Positions 19,201 through 35,835 of a stretch of 64,000 nucleotides of DNA are shown piece after piece. The stretch's first letter is position 1; each line of letters opens with the position of its first letter. Source of the DNA: a virus. Position numbers and translations under genes: made by a program. The stretch covers positions 33,208 to 97,207 of IMG/VR virus record IMGVR_UViG_3300025071_000006. The stretch is one strand, 5' to 3'. The notes under the pieces are model-generated. The model worked only from the letters and a program-made list of their open reading frames with translations. It was not told the origin of the DNA and made no database searches.

Positions 19201-19390
19201 TACACCTGATCCAGCTGGTGGAGCAAGTCAAATACCTGGATGTAGAATAAGTAATGGGTTTATTATAGATCCTAATGTAACAACTACTACAACTACAACA
19301 GATCCTAATACAACAACAACCACCACTACAGTACCACCTGGTGTAAGAACTATATTTACTAGATTTGGAATTAATAATAATCCAACATAA
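16295..19390 (+). CDS. Large modular fibre/decoration protein with poly-Thr linkers, 1031 aa
   Basis: Cys-containing helical N-domain (~95 aa), Thr/Ser runs, then beta-rich Gly/Asn/Thr domains and further Thr runs at the C-terminus. Confidence 0.6.
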   Translation: MLSPRLTNCKGCADIPDLLRRIDCKLAELGNNLYNNVVFMLNKPIAVTDISQLLVYKRVLMFRYCDTHYATRCPEISTEDIASKVIRLTTGCVSLCNEPTVCEITTRAIKPSPNPTTTTTSTSSTSTTSTTSTSSTTTSTTTLNCNFTGVIDCSITTTTTTTPAPTTTTTSTYFPDPFGVPCLWSTNGGNPGNLAVYSFDTNTATTVLVPNDFNETVGIERPICATEDKLWLVSIVDQNPLDNDTSDKVYIREWDIDGTTPNAPTLTYVREITVNTGTYSGYNLGGTSVQAMAAKDNDTLIIGTGNEYGSIPAGTGGVGNMYALEFSIAASGDITVTGNDISAEWVAASGTNAGKMSNLTYTNSGQLVLGYRIDLNPDGSGLGNIVGNWLKVFPATPADPAFSINDTAIPWIKLQDNGYPEFTASYNGSKDAPFWGINGLAQLSHAETLAVYTLNQLPSYSLSLTTNVISSNDWLSSATHCSNIEFKINDTPDCGLTYLPALLDTEGNYLGPQTFEYFGMTCTASLSENLDAWYMGTTPSGFLGCSGLVKPSSEGVSVTRIVQGNNFSVTIDFPQLVNNIPIRAGVLNSNAGGTSGDVYYVSTNTGDPVLSINQGCYLQVDDNKLWGGVQNPNLPNENPIYNPGYGEVKVTTPSDFTSMTIYGNAPTGGPLFLGCRPLNCDNMVYVRFGGLTCSDPEEAGRCVAPPNVPVAQTSYQPIKVWNKTTGVITEVGPPPGEGFASGDIGMSNNIIVVSANFNYQNAAAPPTDQCFIKYTYDSVAEVPTNLEWDGVRYVLPPVWDQFNNGFIPNIEVINDNTIGLTVSTTSGGFDPLYDTRFLECTFPQTGTEMITVEKFALAGAGVNNAGNAGDLLITYKEDGVTPNKVIVLGTVDPYVDNNFITAHLAVQQYDYETGALEVTTRAEDFGVDPIGGAAIALFDGKLYVGGSRWATIDLESPYGWTELVPNAPGTPDPAGGASQIPGCRISNGFIIDPNVTTTTTTTDPNTTTTTTTVPPGVRTIFTRFGINNNPT

Positions 19391-19392
19391 TT

Positions 19393-20724
19393 ATGGAAGC
19401 AACTCAAGACATACATAATAAGATTTTAGAACTACACAAACAGTATCCTCATGCTACTGGTATTGGATGGGGCAAGAAGATTGTAGATGGAGTAGATACT
19501 GGAGAATTTGCTTTTCAAATAGCAGTTAAAAAAAAGAAACCACTTTCTGAAGTCTTAGCAAATGAACTAATCAGTTCTGAGGTTGATCTAAATGGTGTAA
19601 AAATAAAAACTGATATAATAGAAATAGCTATAAATCAACGCATGACTTGTAGTCAGACTTGTGGTAATATAAATGCTGGTCCAAACAATGCCGCAAATAG
19701 AGCGTACACAAGACCTTTAAAAGGTGGAATAGCTGTATCAAGTAGAAACAATGATTCAACTGTAGGAACCCTAGGAGGTTTTGTAATACACAGTGATACT
19801 AATGGTGTGGTTGGTTTAACAAACAATCATGTTTCAATCAATGATGCTTTCTTTACATCCGATAGAGATATTAATGGTCCTTATTTAAATGACTCATATG
19901 CAGTAAATAGAGTTTACAATAATGTACAAGGTCCTAACACCCCTACGTCTAATAACTTTGGAATAAGTTTAAGATATGTTCCTATACACTCGATTGCTTC
20001 AGGACAAGTAAATCAAGTAGATGCTGCAATATGTTCAGTAGCACAGGAAGACTTCTCAACAACTGCCTCTTGGTTACAAGTAGGACTAGAATTAATAATG
20101 GGATCAGACGCTCCACCTTTTGCTAGTACATCTGAGTTAGATAATATATTAGCTACTAATCCTCCTTTATATACAGCTGGAAGAACAACTGGACCAAAAG
20201 GATTAGAACCTGATTGTCCTCTTAGAGTGAGTGCAAGTCCTCAGCTTGTAACTCCAATAAGTTATCAAATGCAAAATCCTACACAAGCTGATTTATCTCT
20301 AGGTAATCAGAGTCCTTATGCTGTAGCATGTACATTTACAAGATCTATCCAATTTGTAAAACCAGCACAAGAAACTCCTAACGCTCAAACTCCAGGATGT
20401 CCAAATCCTATATATAGTGGTGATTCCGGATCTATGTTATTAGCAGATTTTAACGGAACTATTAAAATAGTAGGACTGTGTTATGCTGGTGCTGGTAATC
20501 CTGTAGAATATGGTCTGGCATGTAGAATAGATGACATTGCAGCTCAGTTAGGAATAGAACAATATGTAACTCAAGGTGGAGTAGGAAGTGAAATAATGAT
20601 AGATCCTGATAGTGTCCAATATAAAACTGTAGAAGGAACAAGTGATCAAAAAACAATAACATGCGATAATTTAGAATACTGGCAAACAGGATTTACAGAT
20701 ACATTACAAAATAATTGTCCATAA
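19393..20724 (+). CDS. Chymotrypsin-fold (PA clan, NAL1-like) serine protease
   Basis: GTLGGFV...LTNNHV (His146), VDAAI (Asp210), GDSGS (Ser345), IVGLCYAG; N-terminal GIGWGKK...QIAVKKKKP...KTDIIE prodomain. Confidence 0.85.
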   Translation: MEATQDIHNKILELHKQYPHATGIGWGKKIVDGVDTGEFAFQIAVKKKKPLSEVLANELISSEVDLNGVKIKTDIIEIAINQRMTCSQTCGNINAGPNNAANRAYTRPLKGGIAVSSRNNDSTVGTLGGFVIHSDTNGVVGLTNNHVSINDAFFTSDRDINGPYLNDSYAVNRVYNNVQGPNTPTSNNFGISLRYVPIHSIASGQVNQVDAAICSVAQEDFSTTASWLQVGLELIMGSDAPPFASTSELDNILATNPPLYTAGRTTGPKGLEPDCPLRVSASPQLVTPISYQMQNPTQADLSLGNQSPYAVACTFTRSIQFVKPAQETPNAQTPGCPNPIYSGDSGSMLLADFNGTIKIVGLCYAGAGNPVEYGLACRIDDIAAQLGIEQYVTQGGVGSEIMIDPDSVQYKTVEGTSDQKTITCDNLEYWQTGFTDTLQNNCP

Positions 20725-20748: not shown

Positions 20749-21885
20749 ATGTCAACACAAAATTGCTCAAATTGTTACAACGGCTGTACTGAAATTACTT
20801 CAGACAAGTGCGTTAAATATACAGGAGTAGATGTTCCTATACTAGGAATAAAAACTGGAGACTCTCTATCTTTTGTAGAGCAAGCTCTTATTACCTTTTT
20901 AGGTTCTACTTTAGATGGCACAGGTATACAACCTGTAGTTCCTGCATCAGATATATGTCCTATAGTAGATGCTAATCTAGATAATTGTAATCCTCTATCT
21001 TTAAATAATTATCTTGTAGGTATTATCAAAACTATTTGTGATTTAAACATACAGATAGAAGCTATAGAAGTTTCTAATCCTAGTACAGTTTACAATGTAG
21101 GATGTGTAGAAAATGTTCAAAATACATCTAGCACATCAGAGGTACTACAACAAACCATAGTAAAGTTATGTGAAGTTGAGCAATCACTGAATACTTTTAT
21201 TACTGATGTTACAAATAACTACGTACAGATTGTTGACATAAATACATATATAGAGAACTATTTAAATACTAATCCTCAACAACAGTTGCTGAATAGTAGA
21301 ATGGTTCCATTTTCTTCTCAGCCTTATTTTGGATCATTATCACCATTTGATGCATCTGGTGCTGGCATAGGGATATGGGATAGAATATTCTTATGTAACG
21401 GAAATAATGGAACACCAGATCTTAGAGGTAGAGTTCCAGTAGGAGCTACTGATATGCCAGGTCAATCTATGGATAGTGCTGTCGATCCAGGAAATAGTGG
21501 AAACCCTACATATAACCTAACTAGTTTAGTAGGAACAAATCAAGTTGTATTAACAACAGCAGAAATTCCTTCTCATACCCATATAGGAACAGTAAGTGCT
21601 CCTAGTCCAGAAACTCACACACATCAAATGTTAGTTAAACCAGGTGTAATGGGACAAGGTGGAGCTACTGTTTACCCTGATTATTCTAATCCAGGAGGAG
21701 AGAGGAGAGGTGAGAGAAGAACAATGGATTCTGGTGTTTCTGGTGTTGGTAGTTATGATGCAGCATATACAGAATTAGAAGGAAACCATACACACACTGT
21801 TACTATTGATGTAACTGGTGGAGGCTTAGGTCACAATAACTATCAACCTGGAATGGGAGCATATTATATAATTTACATACCTTAA
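20749..21885 (+). CDS. Tail fibre protein with tail-collar-like C-terminal domain
   Basis: LCNGNNGTPDLRGRVPVG...VVLTTAEIPSHTH...HTHTV...HNNYQP...YYIIY collar/HxH tip signature; Cys-rich N-terminus. Confidence 0.8.
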   Translation: MSTQNCSNCYNGCTEITSDKCVKYTGVDVPILGIKTGDSLSFVEQALITFLGSTLDGTGIQPVVPASDICPIVDANLDNCNPLSLNNYLVGIIKTICDLNIQIEAIEVSNPSTVYNVGCVENVQNTSSTSEVLQQTIVKLCEVEQSLNTFITDVTNNYVQIVDINTYIENYLNTNPQQQLLNSRMVPFSSQPYFGSLSPFDASGAGIGIWDRIFLCNGNNGTPDLRGRVPVGATDMPGQSMDSAVDPGNSGNPTYNLTSLVGTNQVVLTTAEIPSHTHIGTVSAPSPETHTHQMLVKPGVMGQGGATVYPDYSNPGGERRGERRTMDSGVSGVGSYDAAYTELEGNHTHTVTIDVTGGGLGHNNYQPGMGAYYIIYIP

Positions 21886-21896
21886 TACTAAAAACT

Positions 21897-22208
21897 ATGG
21901 CATACTTAGCTACAAATCCTTGTTGTACCGATATAACATTAAACTCTACTTGTGGATGCTCAAGCACTACAACTGCTGACCCATGTAATACTGCAGTACA
22001 CTATTCAAAATCTATTATATATAATGGACCCACATTACCTTGTTCAAATGTAGAGCCTTGTGACGATTTAAACGTTGCTTTGTCTAAAATTGATGAACTT
22101 CTTTGTATATTGAAGACTCAACAAGTAACCAATACATCAGATATTGCTACTATTAAAGAACAAGTTATACTGATAAATCAAACATTAAATACCTGTTGTG
22201 CATCATAA
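21897..22208 (+). CDS. Small Cys-rich fibre-associated protein, 103 aa
   Basis: SIIYNGPTLPC...DDLNVALSKIDELLC resembles the N-terminus of the 20749 product; C-terminal coiled coil. Confidence 0.6.
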   Translation: MAYLATNPCCTDITLNSTCGCSSTTTADPCNTAVHYSKSIIYNGPTLPCSNVEPCDDLNVALSKIDELLCILKTQQVTNTSDIATIKEQVILINQTLNTCCAS

Positions 22209-22453
22209 TGGAAGCATTTATAAAACTAACTACTGCAGGAAATAACACTGGACCTTTCAATCTGTTCTCAGATATAGATGGGTTCACTACTGCTTTTGAA
22301 ACTGGAATAACTAAAACTCAGTTATTAGCTGGATACACAACATCAGCTGTTGCTGATTTTACCACTACAATTAGAGTGGCATCAGATTCATTATGTGAGA
22401 ATAGTTTTGATATTATATTACAGCAAACAACTACCACTACAACAACAATATAA
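22208..22453 (+). CDS. Single GPF-module protein with poly-Thr tail, 81 aa
   Basis: True start probably ATG 22208 (TAATG coupling): MEAFIKLTTAGNNTGPFNLFSD...QQTTTTTTTI. Confidence 0.7.
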   Translation: MEAFIKLTTAGNNTGPFNLFSDIDGFTTAFETGITKTQLLAGYTTSAVADFTTTIRVASDSLCENSFDIILQQTTTTTTTI

Positions 22454-22455
22454 TT

Positions 22456-23586
22456 ATGGCCTTAATAGAGATAACATTAACAATAGACGGACAAGCAGGA
22501 CCATTTGATTTATTTTCAAATGTAGACAGCTTTGGATCACCTTTTGCTACACAAGTGCCTGCTGCAAGTTTAACTGCTGGTTATTCAGTAGTAGCCCCTC
22601 CAGGAACCTCTACTGTTAAAGTTTGCTCTACTGGTGTTTGTACTAACTGTATAGACATTCTTACTAACTGTCCTACAACTACCACTACAACTAGTTCTAG
22701 TACATCTACTACTACAAGTACTTCAACTTCAACATCCACAACTACTACAGAAGTTCCACCAAATAAACTTAATTGGGAACTTATAACAAATACCCCAGGT
22801 TCTCTACTTGCTGCTGACCCTCAACTATCAAATCTAGGAATAAAAGTTAATGGAATACCAGTAGTAGATGTAGAAATTACAGGCAATGCTTCTTCACAAA
22901 GTGGAGTAATAGACATATATCCAGGTGATACTGTAAATGCTTTTTTAAGAACTGATAGAACAGGAGTATATAACTTTGTTAACAGTATTATAAAAGATGG
23001 TATATTCTATCAAGCACAAGATACATGTGACGAATGTAGTAATTTTTACCAAACAGATCTTAGCCCACAATATGTAGGAGCAGGAGTTGATGTTGATTTC
23101 TCTTTTGTAGGTGATACTATTAAAGAAGAAGTTACTACAACAACTACCACAACTATAGCAGCAACTACAACAACAACTACAAGTAGTAGTTCTTCAACCA
23201 CTACAACAACTACAACATGTGATTGTTCTTTAAATGGTGCAACAGCAATTGTTACTGCAGGAACAACAACAACACAAGTTCCAGCTACAACTACCACTAC
23301 AACAACACAAGCTGGAGGAACTAGACTATTAGCTGTAAGATCTACTCTGTTTGATGTAGCTTTATCAATAGGTATTTGTGATTATGCTTTAAATCAATTT
23401 ACTTTTAAAAGTGGACAACCTGTTCCACAAATTGGAGATATTCTTTATGATCAATCAACTGGTGGTTCAACATTTAATGGAGGTAATAACTACTGGCATT
23501 ATCAAACAAGTGGAGCATCCACAACCTACACTATAAGAGTAGGAGCAACCGGAATAATTTCATATGTAGACACATGCTTTGCTTAA
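22456..23586 (+). CDS. GPF-module protein with Thr linkers and two further beta domains, 376 aa
   Basis: N-terminal AGPFDLFS module; three Thr-rich runs separate distinct domains. Confidence 0.7.
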   Translation: MALIEITLTIDGQAGPFDLFSNVDSFGSPFATQVPAASLTAGYSVVAPPGTSTVKVCSTGVCTNCIDILTNCPTTTTTTSSSTSTTTSTSTSTSTTTTEVPPNKLNWELITNTPGSLLAADPQLSNLGIKVNGIPVVDVEITGNASSQSGVIDIYPGDTVNAFLRTDRTGVYNFVNSIIKDGIFYQAQDTCDECSNFYQTDLSPQYVGAGVDVDFSFVGDTIKEEVTTTTTTTIAATTTTTTSSSSSTTTTTTTCDCSLNGATAIVTAGTTTTQVPATTTTTTTQAGGTRLLAVRSTLFDVALSIGICDYALNQFTFKSGQPVPQIGDILYDQSTGGSTFNGGNNYWHYQTSGASTTYTIRVGATGIISYVDTCFA

Positions 23587-23597
23587 ACTAATTATCT

Positions 23598-23843
23598 ATG
23601 GCACAACAAATTAAAATACAACTAACTTCTGCAGGGGCATGTTCTGGTCCTGTAGATTTATATTCAGATGCAGATAACTATGTTAATGCTTTTGCTAGTA
23701 ATATATCTATTACAGTACTAACTAGTGCTTTAGGATATAATACATCTGCTGCACCAATTGGAACTACTACTATAAGAATACAAAATTCTCTTACTAATCA
23801 TGATTGCAATGATAACTTTGTAGATGTAATTATAATAACATAA
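23598..23843 (+). CDS. Single GPF-module protein, 81 aa
   Basis: SGPVDLYSD...GYNTSAAPIGTTTIRI...C...DVII aligns by eye with neighbours. Confidence 0.7.
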   Translation: MAQQIKIQLTSAGACSGPVDLYSDADNYVNAFASNISITVLTSALGYNTSAAPIGTTTIRIQNSLTNHDCNDNFVDVIIIT

Positions 23844-23845
23844 TA

Positions 23846-24511
23846 ATGACAGTATTAATACAAGCTAATAATATAGGAAGTGATGCAGGACCATTTGATA
23901 TATTCTCTCAAGTTAATGGGTATACAGAAGCTTTTGAAACTGGAATAACTGCAGCACAGCTTATTGTAGGTTTTGTATCTTACAATGTTCCTGATGGAAC
24001 TACAGTAGTAAGATTACTGTCGGTTAATTCTAATTGTAATAATCATGAAGATATAGTTATTAATATTCCACCTGTTTGTACAAATCAAACAATAGTTTTT
24101 CAACTATGTAATACTAGTGCTACTGTACAAGATGACTTTGATATATTTTTAAATGGTATAAAAATAGGAGATGTAAGTTTAAATCAAAGTGCACAAGTAG
24201 GATCAGTAATGGTAGGAAGTAATGTTACTCAAATTATAACACAACCAGACTTTGCTTGTCCTTTAGGTAATATGCAGTTATTCTTTTTTGATCCTGATCT
24301 TATATCATATAGAAATAGTATAACAATGACAAACACTCAGAACAATGGAAATGGTAATGTAGGAACACTCTCAATAAGAAACTACAATGTAGTAAATACC
24401 TCATTAGAAACACCTTGTGTAGTTCAAGATTTTAATTTTAGTGGAAGCTCTGGAGATAGCTTTAATTTTACATGGATACACAGTCAATGTTGTAATGACT
24501 TCAACCCATAA
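23846..24511 (+). CDS. GPF-module protein with C-terminal beta domain, 221 aa
   Basis: AGPFDIFS...AFETGIT...GF...VPDGTTVVRL...C...DIVI then a ~145-aa Asn/Gln-rich beta domain. Confidence 0.7.
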   Translation: MTVLIQANNIGSDAGPFDIFSQVNGYTEAFETGITAAQLIVGFVSYNVPDGTTVVRLLSVNSNCNNHEDIVINIPPVCTNQTIVFQLCNTSATVQDDFDIFLNGIKIGDVSLNQSAQVGSVMVGSNVTQIITQPDFACPLGNMQLFFFDPDLISYRNSITMTNTQNNGNGNVGTLSIRNYNVVNTSLETPCVVQDFNFSGSSGDSFNFTWIHSQCCNDFNP

Positions 24512-24512
24512 A

Positions 24513-24575
24513 AAGTTCTCTTTTGTTGGTTTTAGAGAACTTCTCCTAGGGGCTAAATAGCCCTTGGGAGTTTTT
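24513..24575 (+). terminator. Tandem hairpins / intrinsic terminator ending the fibre cluster
   Basis: AAGTTCTCT/AGAGAACTT (24513-24542), then CTCCTAGGGGCTA/TAGCCCTTGGGAG (24543-24570) and T5. Confidence 0.75.
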
Positions 24576-24683
24576 ATTTATAATCAAATTAATTATAAAG
24601 AATAACCCTCACGATTAAATTTTTTATGTTTAGTCAAATAATTTATCTATCTTTACCATATTTACTAATTAAATACAGGACAA

Positions 24684-25928
24684 ATGGCTGAAAATCAAGG
24701 GCTTCTTAATGAGTTAAAATCATTACTAAAGCGAAAAAGAAGCAAACAGTGGTATGCAGAACAACTGAAAATAACACTGTCTGAAGTAAATGAATTATTA
24801 AAAGAGATGAGGGGTAAGAATGTAGATGAAGGAGAAGAGTTTTTAAATGAACCAACTCACAGTAAAGAATTTGAACAGGCACTGCGGAAGGTAAGTAACG
24901 ATAAGGGAACAATAGAAAGTACAATAACTCTTGACTTTGAACCAAAGAGTGATATAGAATTAGCACAATTACACAAGATAGATTTAGAAAAGTATATAAT
25001 TACTAACTATTGGTCTAAAGTACTTCCAACTGGTAAGTTTACATCTTCGATCTTTTCAAAAAGAAAAGGTCCACAAGATTATACAGCTGATGATTTCAGC
25101 AAGTTCCTAGAGAACTACAAATCAAACTACATTCCTATTTCTTCTCCTAAACTAGATAATGATAAATCTCTTGTAGATATTGAATTATCTTTATCTGATT
25201 ACCATTTAGGTAAAAGATATGTTGATGGAGATAATGATCCAGAGACTAGAGCTACAAGGTTTGTACATATAGCAGAAGCTTTAACACATAAAGTTAGATC
25301 TGTTTATGATATAAATAAAGTAGTGTTTCCTATATCTAATGATTTCTTTCATACTGATAATTATCAAAACACTACAACCAATGGTACTCCACAGGATATA
25401 ATCTTAGACTATGCTTCAGAGTATGAAATGGGATTTAATATTCTAGTAGATACTATTAAGATGCTTAAGACTAACTCCAAGCATGTTGAGGTTATTCTAG
25501 TACAAGGTAATCATGATAGAACTAAATCCTATTATTTAGCTCATGCGTTAGATATATTCTTTAAGAATGATAAAAACATATCATTTGTTAGAGAGGAAGG
25601 ATTAATCAAAGCTACCGTAGTTGGTAGTACATTTATTGGTTTTCATCATGGTAACTGTAAAATTGATGCGTTACCTTTATTGTTTGCAACACATCCAGTT
25701 TATAGTAAATGGTTTGGAGATGCTACATATAGAGAAGTTCACACAGGTGATAAACATCACTATATGGCAAAGGAAATAAAGGGAGTAAGAATACAACAAA
25801 TGCCTAGTTTATCTGGAACAGATAGATGGCATAAAGATAATAATTTTGTACATAGTGTACGAGCTGCCTTAGCGTTAGTCTATGACTTTAAAGTAGGAAA
25901 GGTAGCTGAATTTGAAGAAAGAATATAG
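24684..25928 (+). CDS. Calcineurin-like metallophosphoesterase with N-terminal HTH-like segment
   Basis: Motifs SDYHLG, NDFFHTD, QGNHD, FHHG, GDKHH in canonical order. Confidence 0.85.
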   Translation: MAENQGLLNELKSLLKRKRSKQWYAEQLKITLSEVNELLKEMRGKNVDEGEEFLNEPTHSKEFEQALRKVSNDKGTIESTITLDFEPKSDIELAQLHKIDLEKYIITNYWSKVLPTGKFTSSIFSKRKGPQDYTADDFSKFLENYKSNYIPISSPKLDNDKSLVDIELSLSDYHLGKRYVDGDNDPETRATRFVHIAEALTHKVRSVYDINKVVFPISNDFFHTDNYQNTTTNGTPQDIILDYASEYEMGFNILVDTIKMLKTNSKHVEVILVQGNHDRTKSYYLAHALDIFFKNDKNISFVREEGLIKATVVGSTFIGFHHGNCKIDALPLLFATHPVYSKWFGDATYREVHTGDKHHYMAKEIKGVRIQQMPSLSGTDRWHKDNNFVHSVRAALALVYDFKVGKVAEFEERI

Positions 25929-25930
25929 AT

Positions 25931-26077
25931 ATGGCAACAAAGTATGGAAAGCCTACACCAGGCAAAAATGTAAAAGCTCCTAAGATTCGTCCTTATAATA
26001 TGAAGCGTAATTATATGAGAGAAGCTGATCAAATGGGAGGCATACAAGGATTCGGTAATTACAGAAAGAAAATATAA
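25931..26077 (+). CDS. Small basic protein, 48 aa
   Basis: Manual translation MATKYGKPTPGKNVKAPKIRPYNMKRNYMREADQMGGIQGFGNYRKKI; fills the gap exactly. Confidence 0.65.
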   Translation: MATKYGKPTPGKNVKAPKIRPYNMKRNYMREADQMGGIQGFGNYRKKI

Positions 26078-26078
26078 A

Positions 26079-26807
26079 ATGGCAACATTAAGAAAATTAG
26101 TTTCAGACGTGCGATCAATGCACAAGATTTTATCAACGGATGCACTTATAACAGATCGAGCAATCGCTTCTGAGGTTAAGAATACTGCTCAATTGTTAAT
26201 TAAAAGAGAAACTAACTTAAGAAAGCTATGGGCAAGTGATACATTGTTTACTACAATACCTTGTTTAGAGATGAAGGAAGTACCTATCTCTGAATGTTGT
26301 GAGTATGCAGACGAGTGTAGTGTGTCACGAACAGTATTTAAGTTGCCTAGGATCTCCGAAGGTAACTATCAGTATGTAATTCAAGGTGTATATTCTATAG
26401 ATGCCATGGGTGGAAGAGGTACTAAATTAAAAGAAATAACAATCAATAGATATATTAATCTATTAAAACTACCTATAATAAAAAATGATTATTACTTCTG
26501 GATATCTAGTGGGTATCTTTATGTAAATAATCCTTTATTAAAAGCAATAAGGTTAACAGCATTCTTTGAAGAAGATGTACCTAACGAGATCATGTATCCA
26601 GAATGTGGATGTGGAAGTCCTGAATATACAGATGAAGAGTATTGTAAAAATCCTTTAGACAAGGAATATGCATTACCTGGTTATTTAGAACAACAAGCAT
26701 TATCATTAACTTCTCAAAAGTTATTGTCAACATATTTCCAAATTAAGGATGATATGAGTAATGAAGGCATAGATGGACAAGCTCCAAATGCTCAACCTAC
26801 AAACTAG
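26079..26807 (+). CDS. Tail ring/tubular protein
   Basis: 242 aa; C-terminal YALPGYLEQQAL...DDMSNEG pattern and position in tail module. Confidence 0.55.
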   Translation: MATLRKLVSDVRSMHKILSTDALITDRAIASEVKNTAQLLIKRETNLRKLWASDTLFTTIPCLEMKEVPISECCEYADECSVSRTVFKLPRISEGNYQYVIQGVYSIDAMGGRGTKLKEITINRYINLLKLPIIKNDYYFWISSGYLYVNNPLLKAIRLTAFFEEDVPNEIMYPECGCGSPEYTDEEYCKNPLDKEYALPGYLEQQALSLTSQKLLSTYFQIKDDMSNEGIDGQAPNAQPTN

Positions 26808-26815
26808 AACTATAT

Positions 26816-27295
26816 ATGTCAAGAGTAGCAGTTGACTGGAGAAGTGCAAGTAAAAATAATTACGAAGACTTCTGTAAAAAGAACCCTTTGATATCTCTTA
26901 CTTTTGATGAGTGGAGAAATATTCTGTATGCATTTAATGAATCATTCAAATACTACATTTTAGAGACAGGAGAGAAAGAAAAATTACCTACTGGGTTTGG
27001 AGAGTTTTCTATTAACAAAAAGAAAAGAAGAAGAACTAAAGGAATTGACGGTAAGGAATTTGTAAATCTTCCTATTGATTGGCAGAAAACTAAACAGAAA
27101 GGAAAGGTTATATATAACTTTAACTATCACACAGAAGGATACTTCTTTGGTTGGATGTGGTTTAAACAAAGTGCTAGATTTAGAAATTCTGATCTATGGT
27201 ACTTTAAACCTTCTAGAAGAACTTCAAGAGATCTTTCTCACTACTTAAAAGCAGACAATAAATACCAACACATATACCATGAATGGAAAAAATAA
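26816..27295 (+). CDS. IHF/HU-like protein of tail module
   Basis: KLPTGFGEFSINKKK beta-arm motif; crAss-like phages carry IHF-like genes among tail genes. Confidence 0.65.
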   Translation: MSRVAVDWRSASKNNYEDFCKKNPLISLTFDEWRNILYAFNESFKYYILETGEKEKLPTGFGEFSINKKKRRRTKGIDGKEFVNLPIDWQKTKQKGKVIYNFNYHTEGYFFGWMWFKQSARFRNSDLWYFKPSRRTSRDLSHYLKADNKYQHIYHEWKK

Positions 27296-27298
27296 CTT

Positions 27299-28303
27299 AT
27301 GTCATACTATTATAAATACGATTTTGTATCCCCAGAACCATTATATGCAACAGTAAAAGAAGAACTTAAAAGTTATTTTGATACTGGAGCTGTAGATGAT
27401 TTATTATTCCCTACCTACCTAGATAAGTGTCTTAGGAAGATGGGTAGGACTACATTTCAAATTACTACTGAGATTTTATTTGTGGACGACTTTCAAGCAA
27501 GACTTCCTGATAACTTTTATGCAGTAAGAGAAGCATGGATGTGTGCAGTAGTGCAAGGAAATCCTTATCCTGCAGCATCTTCTTTATATACTCAAGCAGT
27601 TAACGCTACTACTATTCAAGTAGCTCCTCTAACAATAGGAGGAACTCCTTGTGATAATCCATCATGTCAACATCCTAGTTGTGATGGTACATGTATGCCT
27701 ACAGTAGTACAAGCTGTATATAAAACAAATAGTGAAATTCCTAGATCCTGGAGACGTTCTTATTTATTAAAGCCAGGAAATATATCTGCACGTAAAAGTT
27801 GTAATTTATCCTATACTAATTCTTGGTCACAATTTAACCAATTAACTTTAGCAGGTCGTGAGTTTACACCTGGTGCTTCTTCTTTTGACTCTTTTGATAT
27901 CAGAGATAATAACTTCGTAACAAATTTTAGATCAGGAACAGTACATCTAGTATTTTATGCAACAGACTATGATAAAATAGGCAATCAATTAATACCTGAT
28001 AACTTTCGTGTTAGAGAATACATTGAAGCATTTATTAAATTTAAAGTATTTGAAACTCTTACAAATCAAACAGTAGACGAAACATTCAATCAACTACAGA
28101 CTAAACTTATGTATCATAAACAAGTAATGGATGAAGCCTGGGTAATGGCAGAAACAGAACTTAAAAAAGAAACAGTTTATCAAAAGCAAAGAAAAATTAT
28201 TACTGACTTAAATCGTTTTAACCAATATGAACTTCCAGATGCAAAATCTCAAGTATCAGGTAGATATTCAAATAGACGTTGGAGACGTAATGGTTTTAAT
28301 TAA
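27299..28303 (+). CDS. Tail ring/tubular protein (P22 gp4-like position)
   Basis: 334 aa immediately upstream of the muzzle gene; C-terminal helical segment; Cys-rich internal loop. Confidence 0.55.
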   Translation: MSYYYKYDFVSPEPLYATVKEELKSYFDTGAVDDLLFPTYLDKCLRKMGRTTFQITTEILFVDDFQARLPDNFYAVREAWMCAVVQGNPYPAASSLYTQAVNATTIQVAPLTIGGTPCDNPSCQHPSCDGTCMPTVVQAVYKTNSEIPRSWRRSYLLKPGNISARKSCNLSYTNSWSQFNQLTLAGREFTPGASSFDSFDIRDNNFVTNFRSGTVHLVFYATDYDKIGNQLIPDNFRVREYIEAFIKFKVFETLTNQTVDETFNQLQTKLMYHKQVMDEAWVMAETELKKETVYQKQRKIITDLNRFNQYELPDAKSQVSGRYSNRRWRRNGFN

Positions 28304-28308
28304 TATAT

Positions 28309-31300
28309 ATGGCTACTAGAAAAGAAATGGATGACTCTGCTTCAGGCTTAACTGCAGCTAAGAAGAAAGCTGCAGAAGCTAAGAAGATGGAATCTGCTCA
28401 GAAAGGTCAAGTGAGAATGGAGTTTAATCAAGCTCAGTCTGGACTTAATATGGACAGTACAATTAACCAGGTGAAAACAGGGAACCTTACCTATGCTTTA
28501 AATGCAACGGTTGAGAACTTTGATTCTAGTTCTATTAATTATCAAAATGAACCTGGTAATGAGCCTTGTCTTAGTTTTCCTGATGGTTATGAACTTATAG
28601 GAAAGCATACTATTCCTGAGAAAAAGAAAAACATATTCTTTTTAGTAAACCCTTTAACTGGTGGAAGTGAAATTGGCTTCATGTTTAATAATGATTGTCA
28701 GTATCGCACGCTAATCAATGCTCCATGTTTAAACTTTAGTGTTGATCACCCTATACCAAAGGTAGTACATAAAATAACAAACTGTACCACAGAGATATAT
28801 TGGACTGATGGATTTAATGCTAGAAGATATTTAAATGTAGAAACAGACGAGAACTTAGAACCAATTGGTCTTCCTTATACATTAATTTCTGGAAGTCCTA
28901 ATTGTGATCCTGTATATAGTGATATATTAGACTGTAATCAACTAAAGATACAGCCTAACTTTGACATACCTTTTTTAGATGTTAATGAAGTAACTAATGT
29001 AGGATCATTAGAAGCTGGAATGTATCAGTTTGCTATTCAATACTCTGATGCTACAGGTAATGATTTAACATCTTATTATTCAGTAACCAACCCTTGTCCT
29101 ATTGCTGATCCTCTTATAACAACAGTAAACTTTAACTATCCAGTAGGTAAATCTATTATAGTAAAAGTATCTAATTTAGATATATCAGGACAATTTAATT
29201 ACTTCAACTTAGCAGTAATTAAAACTATAAATAATATTACTTCAGTAGAACTAGTAGGTGTTTATAACATTACAGAAACTACAGAAGATATAACCTATAC
29301 AGGAGCAGATCAGACAGCTATAAGATTATCAATAAATGATATATTTGAAAAGTATCCTTATTATGATATTGCTAAAGATTTAACATCAGTTCAAGATGTA
29401 TTAGTATGGGATAATTTAACATCTATAGATAGAATCAACTATCAACAGATTGCTAATGATATAACCTTACAATGGGAAACTCATAGATTACCTGCTGATG
29501 AAAATTATGCTGATGAAGAGAATGCTACAAACTTACGTGGATATATGCGTGATGAAGTGTATGCTTTTGAAATAGTATTTCTTCTTAAGAATGGAAAACA
29601 AACAGATTCTTTTCATATCCCAGGTCCTAACAATCTTAATGTACAACCTGACATACCCAACACTAATGATGATTTTATAGGTGAGCCAGATTACTTTCAA
29701 AACGGTATAGGATATAGTCCATATTGGAAGATATATAACAATGCTATAAATCTAGGTTTCTCACCTGGCTATCTTTCTACTGAAAGCTACAAAGGACCTT
29801 ATGAGTTTGGAGAGTTTGCATACTGGGAGTCTACTGAAAAGTATCCTTGTAATAAAGATGTATGGGGTAATTTAGCAGATCAACCTATTAGACATCATAA
29901 ATTTCCAGATGTATTAATTAGTCCCATTATAGAAAGTCCTGTTATTACTTATGACGGAAACAATATGGTTCCTGTTATGCAAGATAGTAATCCAGTATTC
30001 CCTATGGGAGTAAAGATTAATGACAATCAAATTTCAAACTTAATATTAACTTCTGATTTAACACAAGATCAAAAAGATGATATTGTAGGATTTAAAATAG
30101 TTAGAGGAGATCGTGGTACAAATCGTTCAATTATAGCTAAAGGTATACTTAGAAATGTAAACTCTTATATAAGACAAGATCAAGAGTACTACTATCCTAA
30201 CTATCCATACAATCAAATTTCTGGAGAAGACTCATTTCTACAAGAGAATAACAATGCTTGGAATTATAAATCTAAAGCATGGCTTGTATATATGCCAGAT
30301 TCTGCATCAACTGCTCTTCCAGGAGTAGATCTTAACATAGTAGTAAATAGTGAGGATGGTGTATTTTCATATACCAGTGTCACTAATGGAAGACCTACAG
30401 AGGCAGTTATTAAACCTAATTGTATTATAGAAGTATGTTCTATTACAAGACCTGTAGCTCTTAAAGGAGTAATGACTATAGGTCCTGGAGATTATGATAT
30501 ATGGAAATGCTTTCATGATAGTGGTGCATATTGTGGTTGGAGATCAGTAACTCAAAATCCTTTTAATAATATAAACTTTGATGGAACTCTTGTTGGAAAA
30601 AAATGGTGGGCTGCATATTTCTTACCATTTCTTACTGATAAAACAGGTACTGTAATAACTGATTTTGATCCTGACTTTGATTATGATGGTCAATTTAATG
30701 AAGATGCTGGAGGTCATGCTTTTAGACCAGGTATTGAAACTAAACAGTGTGTATCAATTAATGGAAGTAATGGTCGTAGACCTATGTTAAAACTAGCACC
30801 TCTTGGTAATAATGGAGTTTGTGTAAATGAAGATGGAACTAATGCTGCTAATGGTAATTATTCTCCAGGTTGTTTTTCAAACCAATGTACTGAAGGTCCT
30901 AATGGAGAGGCATGTCAATGTTGTATTGATACAGTTAATGGTGAACCCTCTGGTTTTGGAGAACCTACTAATCCTCTTCCTGCAGTAGTACCTAATCCTG
31001 ATGATTCGACAAATACTTTTACTCCTCAAACAGCTTTGGAAGATGGTGGAAGTGCTTCTCTTAGTGGTACAAATAGTCGTCAAGGAAGAAGGTCTTGTTT
31101 AAATTGTGATAAAGATACACCTATTACACCTTTGGATGGTCCTGATGCTGAAAGAGCAAAAGATATTTTAGATAAATTAATATTTAATTCTCCTGACACA
31201 TCCTTTGGGCAGCCATTTTTAGGTGGTGTACTAAAATTAGAAAGTGTCATGGCTGGAGCTGGGAAGGCTCATTTTGTAGAAGTTAAAGACAACGCTAAGT

Positions 31301-34300
31301 ATAAACTTCTAACTAAAGAGGCTCAACAAGATGCTTTAGATAGTTCAGAAAGAGTAGCTAACATGGGAGCTGAATGGAATGCTGGTGTAATGTTTACAGT
31401 ATACCAATCCTATCTTACTATATACATAAATGGTATAACAAGAAAGAACTATGCAATGTCTTTCAACTCAAGAGCAAATTATGATTATTCTTTTCCTATT
31501 GACAATAATGTTAGCAGTGGTATCAAACAAAGAGAGATAGAGCTTGCAAGGTATTTAATACCAGGAGTTCAATCATTTAATAATAATGATGCCCCTATAA
31601 ATAACTGGAATAGAGAATCATCAGTATATATTAAAACTAAAACTAATGACAATTTATTAGCATTACCTATTCCACAAGATACAAATAGTTTAGCGGCTTC
31701 AGATGGAACTTCTAGTATGGTAGAGTATTCAAGATTTGCTATAGGAGATAGTGGTGCTTGTAGTACTCCTGAAAGAGAACAAGACATAAAGGTGGTTTCC
31801 TATTATGCTTCTATGAAAAATATTATACCTAATCAGTGGGGTCAAATAAATTCATTTAAAAGAATAGATACAGGATATCAAAAACTATTAAATTCATCTG
31901 ATAGTGATACTATATTTGGTGGTGATGTATTTATATCTAGATTTACATTTAAAACTAAACTACCATTCTTTATAGATAATAGAGTAGAAGCACCTGATGA
32001 TTCAGACATATTCTTTGATGAGTTAGGTAATGTAGCTTATCCTAAATATTGGCATTCTGCTAGATCTATACTGAGTAATTACACAGTAACTAAAGGTGAG
32101 GATGCTCCTCAAAATATGTTTAACCTTATTTCTACTAAGGCTAATAATTTTGATTGTCCTAGCGATCCTTCTTTATATGATGCAAATACAGATAATCCTA
32201 TTGCAGGTACATACAGAACATTTTATAATGGTTACATGTATTTATGGGCTTATGGTGTTCCTAACTTCTATTGTGAAAGTGTATATAATACAGATTTAAG
32301 ACAGGCTTTTAATACTAAAGAAGGAGACTTTTGGCCTCATGTAAGTAGTGGTATTCCAGACGAGTGGTTTCAAGAAGTAAATGTTCCAATTGCTCAAGAT
32401 AATACTTATTACTATAATGTAACTTACTCTAAACAAAACAAAGAGAATTCATTTAGTCAACTTCCTCCAGATTGGAGAGAGGAATTATGTTTTACATTTT
32501 TCCCATTTAGAGCAATTTACTCTGACTCACAATCAGATACTCCTGATAATAGAGTAAACAATTGGCTAGTGTATAGGGCTCTTAATTTATTTGACTTTCC
32601 ACAAAACTATGGTGATCTTATATCATTAGATGGTATTCAAGATAAGGCAGTATTAGCACGATTTGAAAACAAAGCTTTATTATATAATAAGCTTTTAACT
32701 ATTGACACTAGTAATCCACAAGCAGCTTACATAGGTAATCCTAAAATGTTTTCTAGTTCTCCTCCGATAGATTTTGCAGAAACAGATCTTGGGTATGTAG
32801 GATCTCAACACAAGTTTTTACTTAAACTACCATACGGTCAGATTACTGCAGATGCAAAAAGAGGACAGTTATTTCTTATTAGTGGAAATAAAGCTGTAGA
32901 TATAACAGGATTTGGATCAGGAGTAAACAGATTTATGACAAACAGTTTACCTTTTGAGATATTAGAATACTTCCCAGAAGTAAACATAGATAATAACTTT
33001 ACAGGATTTGGACTACACGGAGTATATGATAGTAAGTTTGATAGAATTATTATTACAAAACTAGATTATATTCCTATAAACTCTTTGATTTATTTTGATA
33101 TAGTTACACAAAACTTTTATCTGCCATCTTTATTAAATAATGGAATAGATCAACAAATATTCTTAAGTGATACGAAATACTTTTGTAATAAGTCTTGGAC
33201 TATGTCATTTGATTTTAGTACAAAAAGCTGGATATCGTTTCATAGTTATTTACCAAACTTTTATATAGGAGAAAATAACTTCTACTATTCAGGAATTAAT
33301 GGATGCTGTACAAACTTTACTGCTATTCTTGATACTCCAGATAGAAGTAGAATTGATAAAGAAGAACCTAATTTGGAAATGATGGTAGGAGTACTAGATG
33401 CAGTTGTTCTTATAACAACAAGTACAACAACTACTACTTCTCCTTTATTTACAACTACCACTACAATATATACACCGGATTGTAATTTTAATATATCATT
33501 AACAGAAGAGTTGAGTTGTGATATAGATGGTGTAGGATACATAACAGTACCTACTCCTACTACTACAACTTTGTGTGTAAGACCTACTCCTTTAACTACT
33601 TCAACCTTTGTAGAAGGATATCAAATAAAAGGTACAACTTCACCAGTAGTAGGAACAGCTACTGCACAAGAAGCATGTAGTGTAGCTGCATTTTCATTTA
33701 ATGATACAAGTACAGAAATTGTACCTATCACTTTTAATTATCAATATCGTGTACTAGATAATTCTACTAGTATACTTAACTCTCAAGTCTATTTAGGAAT
33801 AAGTCAAGACTGTACTATAGTTCCTGATGGTTGGTATAGTGTTCAATATGAGACTGGAACAGTATTCTATGTAGAAAATGGATTTGTAAAAATAGAACAA
33901 CCATGTAATTGTAATACTCTTACAACTACTACAACTGTATATGCAGGAGCATTTGATCAATGTTGCACATGGTTAATGAATGATGACAATGGAACTGTTA
34001 ATATATATAAAGAAAATATACCAGATATGAATGGTATTCCAGTTACAATTCCTAACTATACTTCTGGTAAGTTAGCAATTGGACCGAGTACTTTATATGG
34101 AGTTTCACCAGGTTTTAATACTACATTTAAGAAATGGAAGATTACAACAAACCCATGGACTGTAGAGGTAGCTTCAGATTTAACAATAGCTGATAATTCC
34201 TTTGGTACAACGGCTGGGATAGTAGTTAAAGATGACAATACACTAATTGCAATAGATACATCTCAAGGATATATAGTAGAAATAGACGCATCAACTGGAA

Positions 34301-34959
34301 TCCCTTCACAGAAAATTCTAGTGGGAGGTAATTATACATACTCAACTAACTTATTATATACTAAAACAGGTAAATTAATAACAATAGGAAAAAATACTGC
34401 GTCAGGAAACTTTCATTATTTCCAGTGGGATTATGATAATGAAGTTGCAAATCCAGAAATAAATACTGAGATAATTAATTCAGAATTTGTAAGTTGTAGA
34501 GCGATTATGTCATGTGATTGTGAGATCACTATTGTGGCAGAAGGTTCTACTTGTGAGAATTATTTATTCCAAGTAGAAACAGCCTCTCCTTTTAGAGTGG
34601 TAGGAATAGGATGTTTAGACTATGTAGCAAACCCACCTACCTTAGATGATGTCACACCTATATGGAGTAAACTTAATATTACAAATGTAACTCAGCAAGC
34701 ATCTTGTGTTACTAAAGGCACAGATCAATTTGGAACAACAACTACTACAACCACTGCACCTGCAACTACTACTACCACAACATCAATATATCCATGTTAC
34801 GGATATGAAGTAGTAGGACCTCAAGTAGTGTGGTATCCTAACTGTGTAGGAGATGATCAATCAATATCTGTACCTACAGGAGAAACTTTACAGTTCTGTT
34901 CTTCAGATAATACTATAACTGGTACAGGTATAACTTTATTAGGAGCATGTCCTTTATAA
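28309..34959 (+). CDS. Tail stabilization/muzzle protein with insertions and Thr-linked C-terminal extension, 2216 aa
   Basis: IYWTDGFNARRY, YQFAIQY, GYMRDEVYAF, IFGGDVFISRF, WISFHSYLPNFY patterns as recalled for crAss-like stabilization proteins; position. Confidence 0.75.
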   Translation: MATRKEMDDSASGLTAAKKKAAEAKKMESAQKGQVRMEFNQAQSGLNMDSTINQVKTGNLTYALNATVENFDSSSINYQNEPGNEPCLSFPDGYELIGKHTIPEKKKNIFFLVNPLTGGSEIGFMFNNDCQYRTLINAPCLNFSVDHPIPKVVHKITNCTTEIYWTDGFNARRYLNVETDENLEPIGLPYTLISGSPNCDPVYSDILDCNQLKIQPNFDIPFLDVNEVTNVGSLEAGMYQFAIQYSDATGNDLTSYYSVTNPCPIADPLITTVNFNYPVGKSIIVKVSNLDISGQFNYFNLAVIKTINNITSVELVGVYNITETTEDITYTGADQTAIRLSINDIFEKYPYYDIAKDLTSVQDVLVWDNLTSIDRINYQQIANDITLQWETHRLPADENYADEENATNLRGYMRDEVYAFEIVFLLKNGKQTDSFHIPGPNNLNVQPDIPNTNDDFIGEPDYFQNGIGYSPYWKIYNNAINLGFSPGYLSTESYKGPYEFGEFAYWESTEKYPCNKDVWGNLADQPIRHHKFPDVLISPIIESPVITYDGNNMVPVMQDSNPVFPMGVKINDNQISNLILTSDLTQDQKDDIVGFKIVRGDRGTNRSIIAKGILRNVNSYIRQDQEYYYPNYPYNQISGEDSFLQENNNAWNYKSKAWLVYMPDSASTALPGVDLNIVVNSEDGVFSYTSVTNGRPTEAVIKPNCIIEVCSITRPVALKGVMTIGPGDYDIWKCFHDSGAYCGWRSVTQNPFNNINFDGTLVGKKWWAAYFLPFLTDKTGTVITDFDPDFDYDGQFNEDAGGHAFRPGIETKQCVSINGSNGRRPMLKLAPLGNNGVCVNEDGTNAANGNYSPGCFSNQCTEGPNGEACQCCIDTVNGEPSGFGEPTNPLPAVVPNPDDSTNTFTPQTALEDGGSASLSGTNSRQGRRSCLNCDKDTPITPLDGPDAERAKDILDKLIFNSPDTSFGQPFLGGVLKLESVMAGAGKAHFVEVKDNAKYKLLTKEAQQDALDSSERVANMGAEWNAGVMFTVYQSYLTIYINGITRKNYAMSFNSRANYDYSFPIDNNVSSGIKQREIELARYLIPGVQSFNNNDAPINNWNRESSVYIKTKTNDNLLALPIPQDTNSLAASDGTSSMVEYSRFAIGDSGACSTPEREQDIKVVSYYASMKNIIPNQWGQINSFKRIDTGYQKLLNSSDSDTIFGGDVFISRFTFKTKLPFFIDNRVEAPDDSDIFFDELGNVAYPKYWHSARSILSNYTVTKGEDAPQNMFNLISTKANNFDCPSDPSLYDANTDNPIAGTYRTFYNGYMYLWAYGVPNFYCESVYNTDLRQAFNTKEGDFWPHVSSGIPDEWFQEVNVPIAQDNTYYYNVTYSKQNKENSFSQLPPDWREELCFTFFPFRAIYSDSQSDTPDNRVNNWLVYRALNLFDFPQNYGDLISLDGIQDKAVLARFENKALLYNKLLTIDTSNPQAAYIGNPKMFSSSPPIDFAETDLGYVGSQHKFLLKLPYGQITADAKRGQLFLISGNKAVDITGFGSGVNRFMTNSLPFEILEYFPEVNIDNNFTGFGLHGVYDSKFDRIIITKLDYIPINSLIYFDIVTQNFYLPSLLNNGIDQQIFLSDTKYFCNKSWTMSFDFSTKSWISFHSYLPNFYIGENNFYYSGINGCCTNFTAILDTPDRSRIDKEEPNLEMMVGVLDAVVLITTSTTTTTSPLFTTTTTIYTPDCNFNISLTEELSCDIDGVGYITVPTPTTTTLCVRPTPLTTSTFVEGYQIKGTTSPVVGTATAQEACSVAAFSFNDTSTEIVPITFNYQYRVLDNSTSILNSQVYLGISQDCTIVPDGWYSVQYETGTVFYVENGFVKIEQPCNCNTLTTTTTVYAGAFDQCCTWLMNDDNGTVNIYKENIPDMNGIPVTIPNYTSGKLAIGPSTLYGVSPGFNTTFKKWKITTNPWTVEVASDLTIADNSFGTTAGIVVKDDNTLIAIDTSQGYIVEIDASTGIPSQKILVGGNYTYSTNLLYTKTGKLITIGKNTASGNFHYFQWDYDNEVANPEINTEIINSEFVSCRAIMSCDCEITIVAEGSTCENYLFQVETASPFRVVGIGCLDYVANPPTLDDVTPIWSKLNITNVTQQASCVTKGTDQFGTTTTTTTAPATTTTTTSIYPCYGYEVVGPQVVWYPNCVGDDQSISVPTGETLQFCSSDNTITGTGITLLGACPL

Positions 34960-34965
34960 TTAACT

Positions 34966-35835
34966 ATGGCAACAAAAATAATAAATTTAAAAATAACGAG
35001 CTCTAGTCCTAATGTAGGACCTTTTGATGTCATTACTGATAACGGAGTTACTGTGGGAACTAATGTTTCACTAAGTGATTTTATTTCTGGTATAAGTTAT
35101 ATAGTAGATTCATCTGTAGAAGTGGTAACAATTAAGTCTAATGGTAATTGTGAATTTACAAAGAATTTTAGTGTTAAAAATATACCTAATCAAACATATA
35201 TAAATGCTAAATATACTCCAACAAGAACTGGATGTTTATGGACTCATTTAAGAAATGATACTTTATATAATTATTACTATGGAGATATAGCTCCTTATAT
35301 AATTGAGTATCCTTTTGCATATAAATATTACGATGAGATACTACAGAATGTAAAAGATTATAGTAAAGTGTATGTATACCTACCTTCTACGTTAGGATCA
35401 TTTGATTCTAATAGTAAGGTGCAAGTTGATGATAAGTATTTTAATAAAGCTGTTCTTTATAATGGTCAGCAATCTACAGGTATAATAGAACTTGTGCCTA
35501 AACCTATGAATGACTTAAGTTCATACTTACAGTATCCTATATTAAATAGTGACAGTAAGACTATTACATATGCAAAGACAGATAGTTTTTATCAATACAA
35601 TACTTTCTGGGCACTACAGAAAGATGATCAAGTACCTTTGTTTAAGACATCATGTGAATCGAAATCAATAGATAAAGTAGTTAATCAGGACAACATGAAT
35701 TATGGTGACCTATCATTTAAGAAGTCACAACTAAGAGCTAAGAATTTAAAGGTGAGACACATATTAGATAACTCTTCTATAACACATATAGTAAGTCAGT
35801 TTATTGTAACACCAGCACAAATATCATATCATTAA
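34966..35835 (+). CDS. GPF module fused to a muzzle-C-terminus-like domain, 289 aa
   Basis: N-terminal VGPFDV module, then LWTH...YNYYYG..PYIIE...FNKAVLYNGQQSTG. Confidence 0.6.
   Translation: MATKIINLKITSSSPNVGPFDVITDNGVTVGTNVSLSDFISGISYIVDSSVEVVTIKSNGNCEFTKNFSVKNIPNQTYINAKYTPTRTGCLWTHLRNDTLYNYYYGDIAPYIIEYPFAYKYYDEILQNVKDYSKVYVYLPSTLGSFDSNSKVQVDDKYFNKAVLYNGQQSTGIIELVPKPMNDLSSYLQYPILNSDSKTITYAKTDSFYQYNTFWALQKDDQVPLFKTSCESKSIDKVVNQDNMNYGDLSFKKSQLRAKNLKVRHILDNSSITHIVSQFIVTPAQISYH

Follow-up and report, generated by a model that had tools for sequence, protein, structure and literature searches.

Five proteins begin with the same module

The stretch of DNA analysed here (the window) comprises 64,000 nucleotides (nt), positions 33,208 to 97,207 of the IMG/VR virus record IMGVR_UViG_3300025071_000006, which is 115,478 bp long and rated complete by CheckV. 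Our subject is a module of about 75 amino acids (aa), the GPF module, that opens five proteins encoded on the forward strand. The first gene, g1 (22208-22453), starts with an ATG that shares 1 nt with the upstream stop codon (TAATG) and encodes a stand-alone module protein of 81 aa, in which the module (aa 1-78; 22208-22441) is followed by a short poly-Thr tail. The 376-aa product of g2 (22456-23586) consists of the module (aa 1-77; 22456-22686), three Thr/Ser linkers and two further domains, the C-terminal of which (aa 317-368) matches phrog_21885, a family of unknown function. A second stand-alone module protein of 81 aa is encoded by g3 (23598-23843), and g4 (23846-24511) encodes 221 aa, with the module (aa 1-79; 23846-24082) preceding a Cys-containing payload of ~140 aa. 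The fifth gene (34966-35835) specifies a 289-aa protein, termed muzzle-C, that begins with a divergent module (aa 1-78; 34966-35199) and continues with a region homologous to the C-terminus of crassvirus muzzle proteins (aa ~89-287; 35230-35826). The first-pass annotation, made from the sequence, had listed these five reading frames as sharing an N-terminal pattern, with two copies standing alone, two bearing payloads and Thr linkers in g2, and all of this holds. A search for a sixth copy, in the window and then across all 115,478 bp of the genome, found none.

The first ~75 residues of all five open reading frames (ORFs) align, and a Gly-Pro pair, one Gly and one Cys are invariant. Against a background of all 406 six-frame ORFs of the window, leave-one-out profiles recover each of g1-g4 with E-values from 1.8e-22 to 1.7e-13, the best unrelated ORF scoring E 0.2 or worse; the paralogues share only ~40% protein identity. 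The fifth copy is marginal by sequence, with E 0.007 in the leave-one-out search and E 1.8e-4 with a 62-sequence profile that excludes it. Its own family, however, retains the invariant G-P-F, Gly and Cys, and profile-profile alignment (hhalign) of the first 80 columns of that family with the module profile yields a probability of 98.4% and E 4.6e-15 over 70 columns, as against E 0.44 for the C-terminal part of the same family, used as the control. The AlphaFold2 (AF2) models of g1 (predicted local distance difference test, pLDDT, 86.9) and of residues 1-80 of muzzle-C (block means 81-95) have seven strands and one short helix in identical order. Finally, a Foldseek search of BFVD with the module model retrieves a 287-aa orthologue of muzzle-C from Virus NIOZ-UU157. 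Because the profile-profile match, the shared order of predicted strands and helix, and this structural match agree, the fifth copy is homologous to the others, and all five N-terminal modules form one homologous set whose copies align significantly.

An undescribed, phage-restricted family

When 1.84 billion cluster representatives (50% identity) were searched exhaustively with the profile, 1786 matched with E <= 1e-3, 1375 of them with E <= 1e-10. A word-indexed search gave 81 short and 164 longer relatives, and at least 594 matching stretches from a scan of IMG/VR were confirmed by tblastn. Among 185,579 species genomes, the module is carried by only six contigs, all of them from metagenome-assembled genomes and with mutually inconsistent taxonomy. 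The family is thus large, phage-restricted and almost exclusive to uncultured marine phages.

Statistics on position and payload were drawn from a sample of 393 module proteins. In 385 of them the module begins within residues 1-7; in the other eight it begins at residues 12-30, apparently because the start codon was placed too far upstream. The module is N-terminal in essentially every protein sampled, in keeping with the claim of the first-pass annotation that it always comes first. The sole protein of the sample with two tandem modules (residues 1-72 and 91-147) is a 200-aa metagenomic relative, P0086.

AF2 predicts the module to be a small Ig/FN3-like β-sandwich of seven strands and ~75 residues. 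VIA-align against 48,161 chains gave only generic FN3/Ig matches, many FN3-like domains scoring Z 5-6.1 (root-mean-square deviation 2.5-3 Å over ~70 residues). The model is thus a seven-strand sandwich that superposes on known members of the FN3/Ig-like fold class, a placement by fold that does not imply membership of any of its families. Indeed, the Pfam Ig, FN3 and Big families do not match the module, and Pfam at E <= 1 gives just weak matches to unrelated families, far below the curated cut-offs. In PHROGs at E <= 0.1, the sole match that touches the module is weak and partial (g2 residues 17-48 with phrog_23190, E 0.021). Neither the profile of the 289-aa family, module included, nor the 2216-aa muzzle protein described below matches a PDB sequence, and Foldseek against the PDB with the module model gives nothing below E 0.2. 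In BFVD, the only significant matches are five uncharacterised proteins of Virus NIOZ-UU157 (417, 939, 287, 77 and 77 aa), and a structure search of the Atlas returns only viral hypothetical clusters. We found no account of the module in the literature on the NIOZ-UU157 virus and on crassvirus fibre structures. The description in the first-pass annotation, an unnamed module and Ig-like unit, is therefore fitting: the module is a predicted sandwich (pLDDT 87) that defines an undescribed family, without a Pfam, PHROG or PDB relative.

The module contains a Cys at position 63 that is conserved in 99% of copies and occupies an equivalent position in free and muzzle-borne modules. Just one Cys is present in 288 of the 393 modules, and 58 of the 74 stand-alone proteins contain a single Cys in total. 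The number of Cys residues in the payload is even in 252 of 319 proteins, a parity that suggests pairing and hence proteins built for an oxidising environment. Since the payload cysteines appear to be paired, the unpaired Cys of the module may be one that forms a disulfide between molecules. The hub proteins of crAss001 are disulfide-linked to one another and to the ring proteins (PMC10172136).

Payloads are exchanged between N-terminal modules

Beyond the module, 74 of the 393 proteins have 25 residues or fewer. The 302 payloads of at least 60 aa fall into 92 BLAST clusters, and in about half of the proteins tested (those with at least 10 aa beyond the module) at least 40% of the next 20 residues are Thr or Ser. 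Searching Pfam with the 92 payload representatives gave one match, to Ice_binding (PF11999, E 1.2e-48), which is the sole confidently recognisable payload; the other representatives gave nothing significant in PHROGs either, and none of the 92 matched a PHROG of known function.

The window also encodes a 1031-aa fibre-like protein (16295-19390, forward strand), which has a Cys-rich N-terminal module (aa 1-112), a Thr/Ser linker and a body that starts at aa 144. Related proteins of 894-973 aa, with 33-54% identity to this body (aa 144-1031), instead start with a GPF module (aa 1-77). The same ~890-aa body is headed by the GPF module in loci L010, L012, L015, L016, L018 and L023-L031, and by the Cys-rich module in the window and in L007, L009, L011, L019 and L035. 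Payloads are thus interchangeable, as the first-pass annotation had proposed, in that they form 92 clusters and one large body is borne by either of two N-terminal modules in relatives.

The second N-terminal module (16295-16723; Cys-rich, ~112 aa, followed by a Thr/Ser linker) is unrelated to the GPF module and behaves likewise. It occurs in nearly all related loci examined, on proteins of 88-1223 aa, and starts at residue 1 in all but two proteins (residues 14 and 18). A 103-aa Cys-rich protein encoded immediately upstream of g1 (21897-22208, forward strand) has an N-terminal part that recurs in distant relatives on proteins of 98, 229, 255, 382 and 402 aa, sometimes twice in tandem genes, and this part looks like a third constant N-terminal module of the locus. 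Because one body sits on two different modules and a third N-terminal part recurs, we view the locus as one in which several N-terminal modules stay constant and the C-terminal parts joined to them are exchanged. With the N-terminal virion-anchor domains of phage fibres, its putative functional class, the module shares a constant N-terminus, exchangeable C-terminal parts and a location in the fibre locus.

Two side observations concern these fibre-type genes. The DNA that encodes the Thr/Ser linkers (16638-16720, 19267-19330 and 23133-23217) consists of imperfect tandem repeats of the ACN type, 9-33 nt in period, which could favour slippage or recombination at domain borders. Next to the 1031-aa gene lies a protease-like gene of 443 aa (19393-20724; phrog_20754) that accompanies the fibre-like body; in G002, where that body is fused to the GPF module, it is again trailed by a 449-aa orthologue (58% identity). 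This suggests that the protease-like protein is a maturation protease or chaperone for the fibre-like protein.

Module copies in related genomes

Close relatives retain the four-gene cassette, with proteins of ~83, 380, 80 or 180, and 221 aa. Orthologues of g3 are either 78-83 or 179-183 aa long, the payload being present or absent at this position, and the length of the g4 orthogroup is kept at 220-223 aa. More distant relatives have one to three cassette genes with payloads up to ~550 aa (proteins up to 628 aa). Five complete or near-complete relatives have between two and six module copies, and in each of the six complete or near-complete genomes the muzzle-borne copy is accompanied by one or more free copies. 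The minimum set, seen in three complete genomes, consists of one free copy (83-167 aa) and a 288-aa protein of the muzzle-borne type ~9-10 kb downstream.

In a tree of 43 modules, the muzzle-borne type is set apart from all others with 100/100 support, and g1, g2, g3 and g4 form separate orthogroups that are retained across genomes. The single free copy of the minimal genomes groups with g1, an orthogroup present in every complete relative. Among g2 orthologues the module is better conserved than the payload, and among those of g4 the two are equal; in the muzzle-borne type the module is 35-51% conserved and the rest 65-81%. When the window is compared with the three distant complete genomes L089-L091, identity is ~80% for ring protein 2, ~70% for ring protein 1 and 49-58% for the muzzle, and the module of g1 is ~49-55% identical to those of the free copies. 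Because the module is so much less conserved than ring protein 2, its partner, if it docks, is less likely to be the barrel than a fast-evolving peripheral surface such as the muzzle or another module.

The muzzle gene is split and its C-terminal part is headed by a module

The muzzle protein of 2216 aa (28309-34959, forward strand) is a member of Pfam crAss_MUZ (PF25731), scoring 110.4 bits where the cut-off is 27 (E 1e-31). Unsplit muzzle proteins are found in Flavobacterium phage Fpv1 (gp30, 1783 aa, annotated as a virion structural protein), in Leptolyngbya phage Lbo-JY46 (1654 aa) and in the faecal contig MT837925 (an ORF of at least 1362 aa). The 2216-aa protein is collinear with all three only to residues 1663-1665, the core extending up to 33303, and its alignment ends at residue 1586 of Fpv1, 1455 of Lbo-JY46 and 1165 of MT837925. 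The very C-terminal end of each of these three is matched by residues ~89-287 of the 289-aa protein, which resumes at residue 1588 of Fpv1 and 1172 of MT837925. We detected no module in the three unsplit muzzles.

The profile of the 289-aa family matches Fpv1 gp30 residues 1589-1781 with E 4.9e-16, and residues ~1597-1706 of gp30 in turn match Pfam crAss_MUZ_C (PF25729) with E 6.1e-15. Residues 89-287 themselves do not match PF25729 directly, even at E <= 10, and the 289-aa protein reaches no Pfam threshold, so the muzzle C-terminal homology of the 289-aa protein is transitive, via Fpv1 gp30. A weak direct match links its residues 63-116 to crAss001 gp44 residues 1210-1261 (E 0.002). The protein has 2607 homologues of ~288 aa. 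In terms of the crassvirus muzzle families (PF25731 and PF25729), the 2216-aa protein is thus a crAss_MUZ member and the 289-aa protein a homologue of the muzzle C-terminus, encoded here by a split gene. The alignments with unsplit muzzles bear out the surmise of the first-pass annotation that one copy is fused to the C-terminal part of the muzzle: the module heads the split-off C-terminal domain.

Since the alignment of the 2216-aa protein stops where the 289-aa protein resumes, these sequence alignments place the split of the muzzle gene at one point, with ~550 aa of Thr-linked domains, a stop codon and a module between the halves. The extension (aa 1666-2216; 33304-34956) consists of three Thr-linked domains, the last of which, a four-Cys domain of ~70 aa, recurs as the payload of module proteins (P0322, E 4.4e-7, and a 340-aa protein in L055). 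The layout could be explained by one insertion of a fragment consisting of payload, stop codon and module, taken from a tandem array. As a separate observation, the first domain of the extension (~aa 1688-1879) is found in all split muzzles examined and the middle domain only in some. On the crAss001 domain map, where the crass and IG2 domains end near gp44 residue 1021, the break would fall beyond both, in the propeller or ring-joining part that follows. Such a position agrees with the AF2 result for the C-terminal part of the 289-aa protein, which did not fold on its own (pLDDT below 50, an unusable model).

The muzzle-borne module lacks the Arg, Asn and Asp that are conserved in free copies, and the C-terminal part of muzzle-C has two further clade-specific invariant cysteines, C90 and C230. 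Complex prediction that paired g1 with the muzzle-borne module (aa 1-88) gave a score of 0.04, the mark being 0.32, a value that carries no weight either way.

Genome setting

The source phage is a distant marine crAss-like phage. The genes for ring protein 2 (26079-26807; Pfam CrAss_Ring_2, E 3.3e-18), an IHF-like protein of 159 aa (26816-27295), ring protein 1 (27299-28303; Pfam CrAss_Ring_1, E 1.7e-8), the muzzle and the cargo protein, the first three on the forward strand, follow the order of crAss001 gp40-gp45 (phmmer against crAss001 proteins). Profile matches identify the large terminase (4675-6696), the portal (6696-9272) and the major head protein (10736-12301). The module genes lie downstream of two other fibre-type genes, the 1031-aa gene described above and one for a 378-aa fibre protein (20749-21885, forward strand) whose C-terminal region is tail-fibre-like (PHROG tail and tail-fibre matches), and upstream of the ring and muzzle genes, with junctions that overlap or measure 2-11 nt. 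Between the fibre locus and ring protein 2, the run of structural genes is broken by an exonuclease gene (24684-25928; phrog_704, E 4.9e-53), and Flavobacterium phage Fpv1 has an exonuclease at the equivalent place. The G+C content of the window is ~33%. Its close relatives are contigs of 105-120 kb from Tara and other marine metagenomes; among deposited phage genomes there was no match to 16 kb of the window (megablast) or to g4 (tblastn).

A proposed constant adaptor for tail appendages

The reading we favour, to which we give about an even chance, is that the module is the constant N-terminal virion-attachment adaptor for accessory tail appendages in a clade of marine crAss-like phages. We base it on the restriction of the family to phages, the position at residue 1, the variable payloads and their exchange, the location in the fibre locus and the muzzle-borne copy. 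The module would anchor the protein that carries it to the tail, and the muzzle or its vicinity is the probable site, to judge from the similar evolutionary rates of module and muzzle. By analogy with the tail-hub and ring proteins of crAss001, the near-invariant single Cys may staple this contact through an intermolecular disulfide, and the payloads, which include small paired-Cys domains and one that is ice-binding-like, would then serve as adhesins or receptor-binding heads. In crAss001 itself, the fibre gp22 docks via its N-terminus, residues 1-26 of which lie in the THA2-THB hub (PMC10172136).

Several points weigh against this adaptor. The payload-less copies g1 and g3 are conserved, which sits awkwardly with a role as anchor alone. 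The module diverges fairly fast (~49-55% identity, compared with ~80% for ring protein 2), which speaks against docking on the conserved barrel, and the muzzle-borne module is far less conserved than the rest of its protein and has lost the conserved polar residues. The co-occurrence of the genes across related genomes is non-independent evidence, and we infer the binding for an uncultured phage that is known here from its sequence. The first-pass annotation had imagined a docking or polymerising unit on pilin or cohesin-dockerin lines. Strand complementation as in pilins is unsupported by the AF2 model, a complete seven-strand sandwich, and the cohesin-dockerin logic is just an analogy.

Alternatively, modules may dock on one another. 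The copy displayed by the hexameric muzzle would recruit free copies, possibly in chains, by homotypic contact and a Cys-Cys disulfide, so that the split muzzle acts as socket and the free proteins as plugs; put as a plug-in system, six muzzle-borne modules would capture free module proteins through sandwich-to-sandwich contact, locked by a disulfide between the equivalent lone cysteines. We regard both the docking and the plug-in system as unlikely, although they fit the minimal set of three complete genomes, which is exactly one free and one muzzle-borne copy. The equivalent position of the invariant Cys in both types, their similar and fairly high rates of evolution, and the four paralogues kept in fixed gene order also argue for such docking. 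The muzzle-borne copy, however, is without the polar residues conserved in free copies, and C90 and C230 could pair with C62 inside the same chain. The contrary possibility is that the module does not dock at all and is a generic Ig-like spacer or solubility domain, kept at the 5' end by descent and by recombination at conserved 5' segments and poly-Thr repeats, any attachment being made by other parts of the protein. The generic fold would agree with this (best Z 6.1, with FN3 and Ig throughout the list), as would the ACN repeats that encode the Thr linkers, and a docking unit is unneeded on the C-terminal domain of the muzzle, which should take its place there by completing the muzzle fold. 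Ig-like domains were reportedly recognised by Fraser et al. in 2006 as common accessories of phage structural proteins, in line with such a passenger. Yet the stand-alone copies of ~80 aa, which every genome conserves, have nothing else by which to attach; the GPF motif, the invariant lone Cys and a placement that is strictly N-terminal across 393 proteins point to a constrained function; and a protein identity of ~40% between paralogues is too low for recombination within a genome. We therefore consider the passenger doubtful.

Two other sites on the virion are harder to reconcile with the data. Binding to the capsid surface, with the payloads displayed as head fibres, has a precedent in crAss001 gp21 and gp29, which are small, bind by their N-termini and have a C-terminal Ig-like domain, and recognisable homologues of which are absent from most crassviruses (PMC10172136). 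Here, however, one module is on a muzzle domain and another, in relatives, on a large fibre-like body, the genes lie in the fibre locus away from the capsid genes, and there is no similarity to gp21 or gp29, so that we think capsid decoration very unlikely. The cassette proteins might instead form a collar round the barrel, like THA and THB of crAss001. The cassette lies upstream of ring protein 2 (with the exonuclease gene between), a placement much like that of gp38 and gp39 ahead of gp40; g1 resembles THB in its small size, and the crAss001 hub proteins are disulfide-linked. Sequence matches to gp38 and gp39, however, are at E 0.75 or worse, no crAss001 chain is among the top structural matches (a result still compatible with a distant relation), and variable copy number and hypervariable payloads are ill-suited to a fixed collar; this is, to our minds, highly improbable.

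Relation to known systems

Receptor-binding proteins of phages have well-known anchors, such as the N-domain of T7 gp17, the head-binding domain of the P22 tailspike and the branched tailspikes of CBA120 and G7C. The module resembles these in its constant N-terminus, variable C-terminal parts, adjacent paralogues in a fibre locus and payload exchange between relatives. It differs in having no sequence or specific fold similarity to them, and those anchors sit on trimeric fibres, whereas the module is predicted to be a single sandwich of 75 aa. Payload-less copies are conserved here, one copy is on a muzzle fragment, and docking is, for the module, something we infer. Phage receptor-binding proteins are in fact commonly built in this way, from a constant N-terminal anchor, the end attached to the virion, and swappable C-terminal parts, which makes the logic less novel than the first-pass annotation supposed. 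New here is the domain family itself, and a split muzzle headed by one of its members is unusual.

With crAss001 gp22, gp21 and gp29 the system shares a related virion architecture (ring proteins and muzzle), and it would share N-terminal attachment and disulfide-stabilised tail parts (PMC10172136), but the fibre locus of crAss001 lies elsewhere in its genome, and the module profile finds nothing significant among all crAss001 structural proteins. Ig-like accessory domains, such as T4 Hoc and the BACON repeats of crAssphage, are likewise small β-sandwiches on virion proteins and mobile between proteins. As a rule they are added to a core protein internally or at its C-terminus, whereas here the sandwich is constant from the first residue and the rest is variable. 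Cohesin-dockerin offers the analogy of a plug-in sandwich, but no dockerin-like partner is found here. The C-terminal domains of the type 9 secretion system are similar in size and fold (RemZ, NucA, RemA and RgpB at Z 4.8-5.7), and the likely hosts are Bacteroidota. Unlike the module, they are C-terminal and need a signal peptide, and their scores are no better than those of generic FN3 domains. We rejected this identity, the module being at residue 1 and the N-termini, on inspection, running into the first strand without a signal-peptide-like stretch.

Significance

The crAss-like phages are abundant, and the attachment and exchange of their tail appendages are poorly known beyond one gut phage. 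The family also comes with natural experiments, namely one payload on two adaptors, a muzzle gene split at one point and a lone conserved Cys. If the module is a passenger, the finding shrinks to the description of a new domain family and a split muzzle gene. If its docking is covalent, it would be usable as a small self-attaching tag. Were the plug-in system real, tail-tip adhesins could be changed or multiplied simply by adding cassette genes. The module is widespread and easily recognised, and these natural experiments would provide a handle on host-range evolution in phages of marine Bacteroidota.

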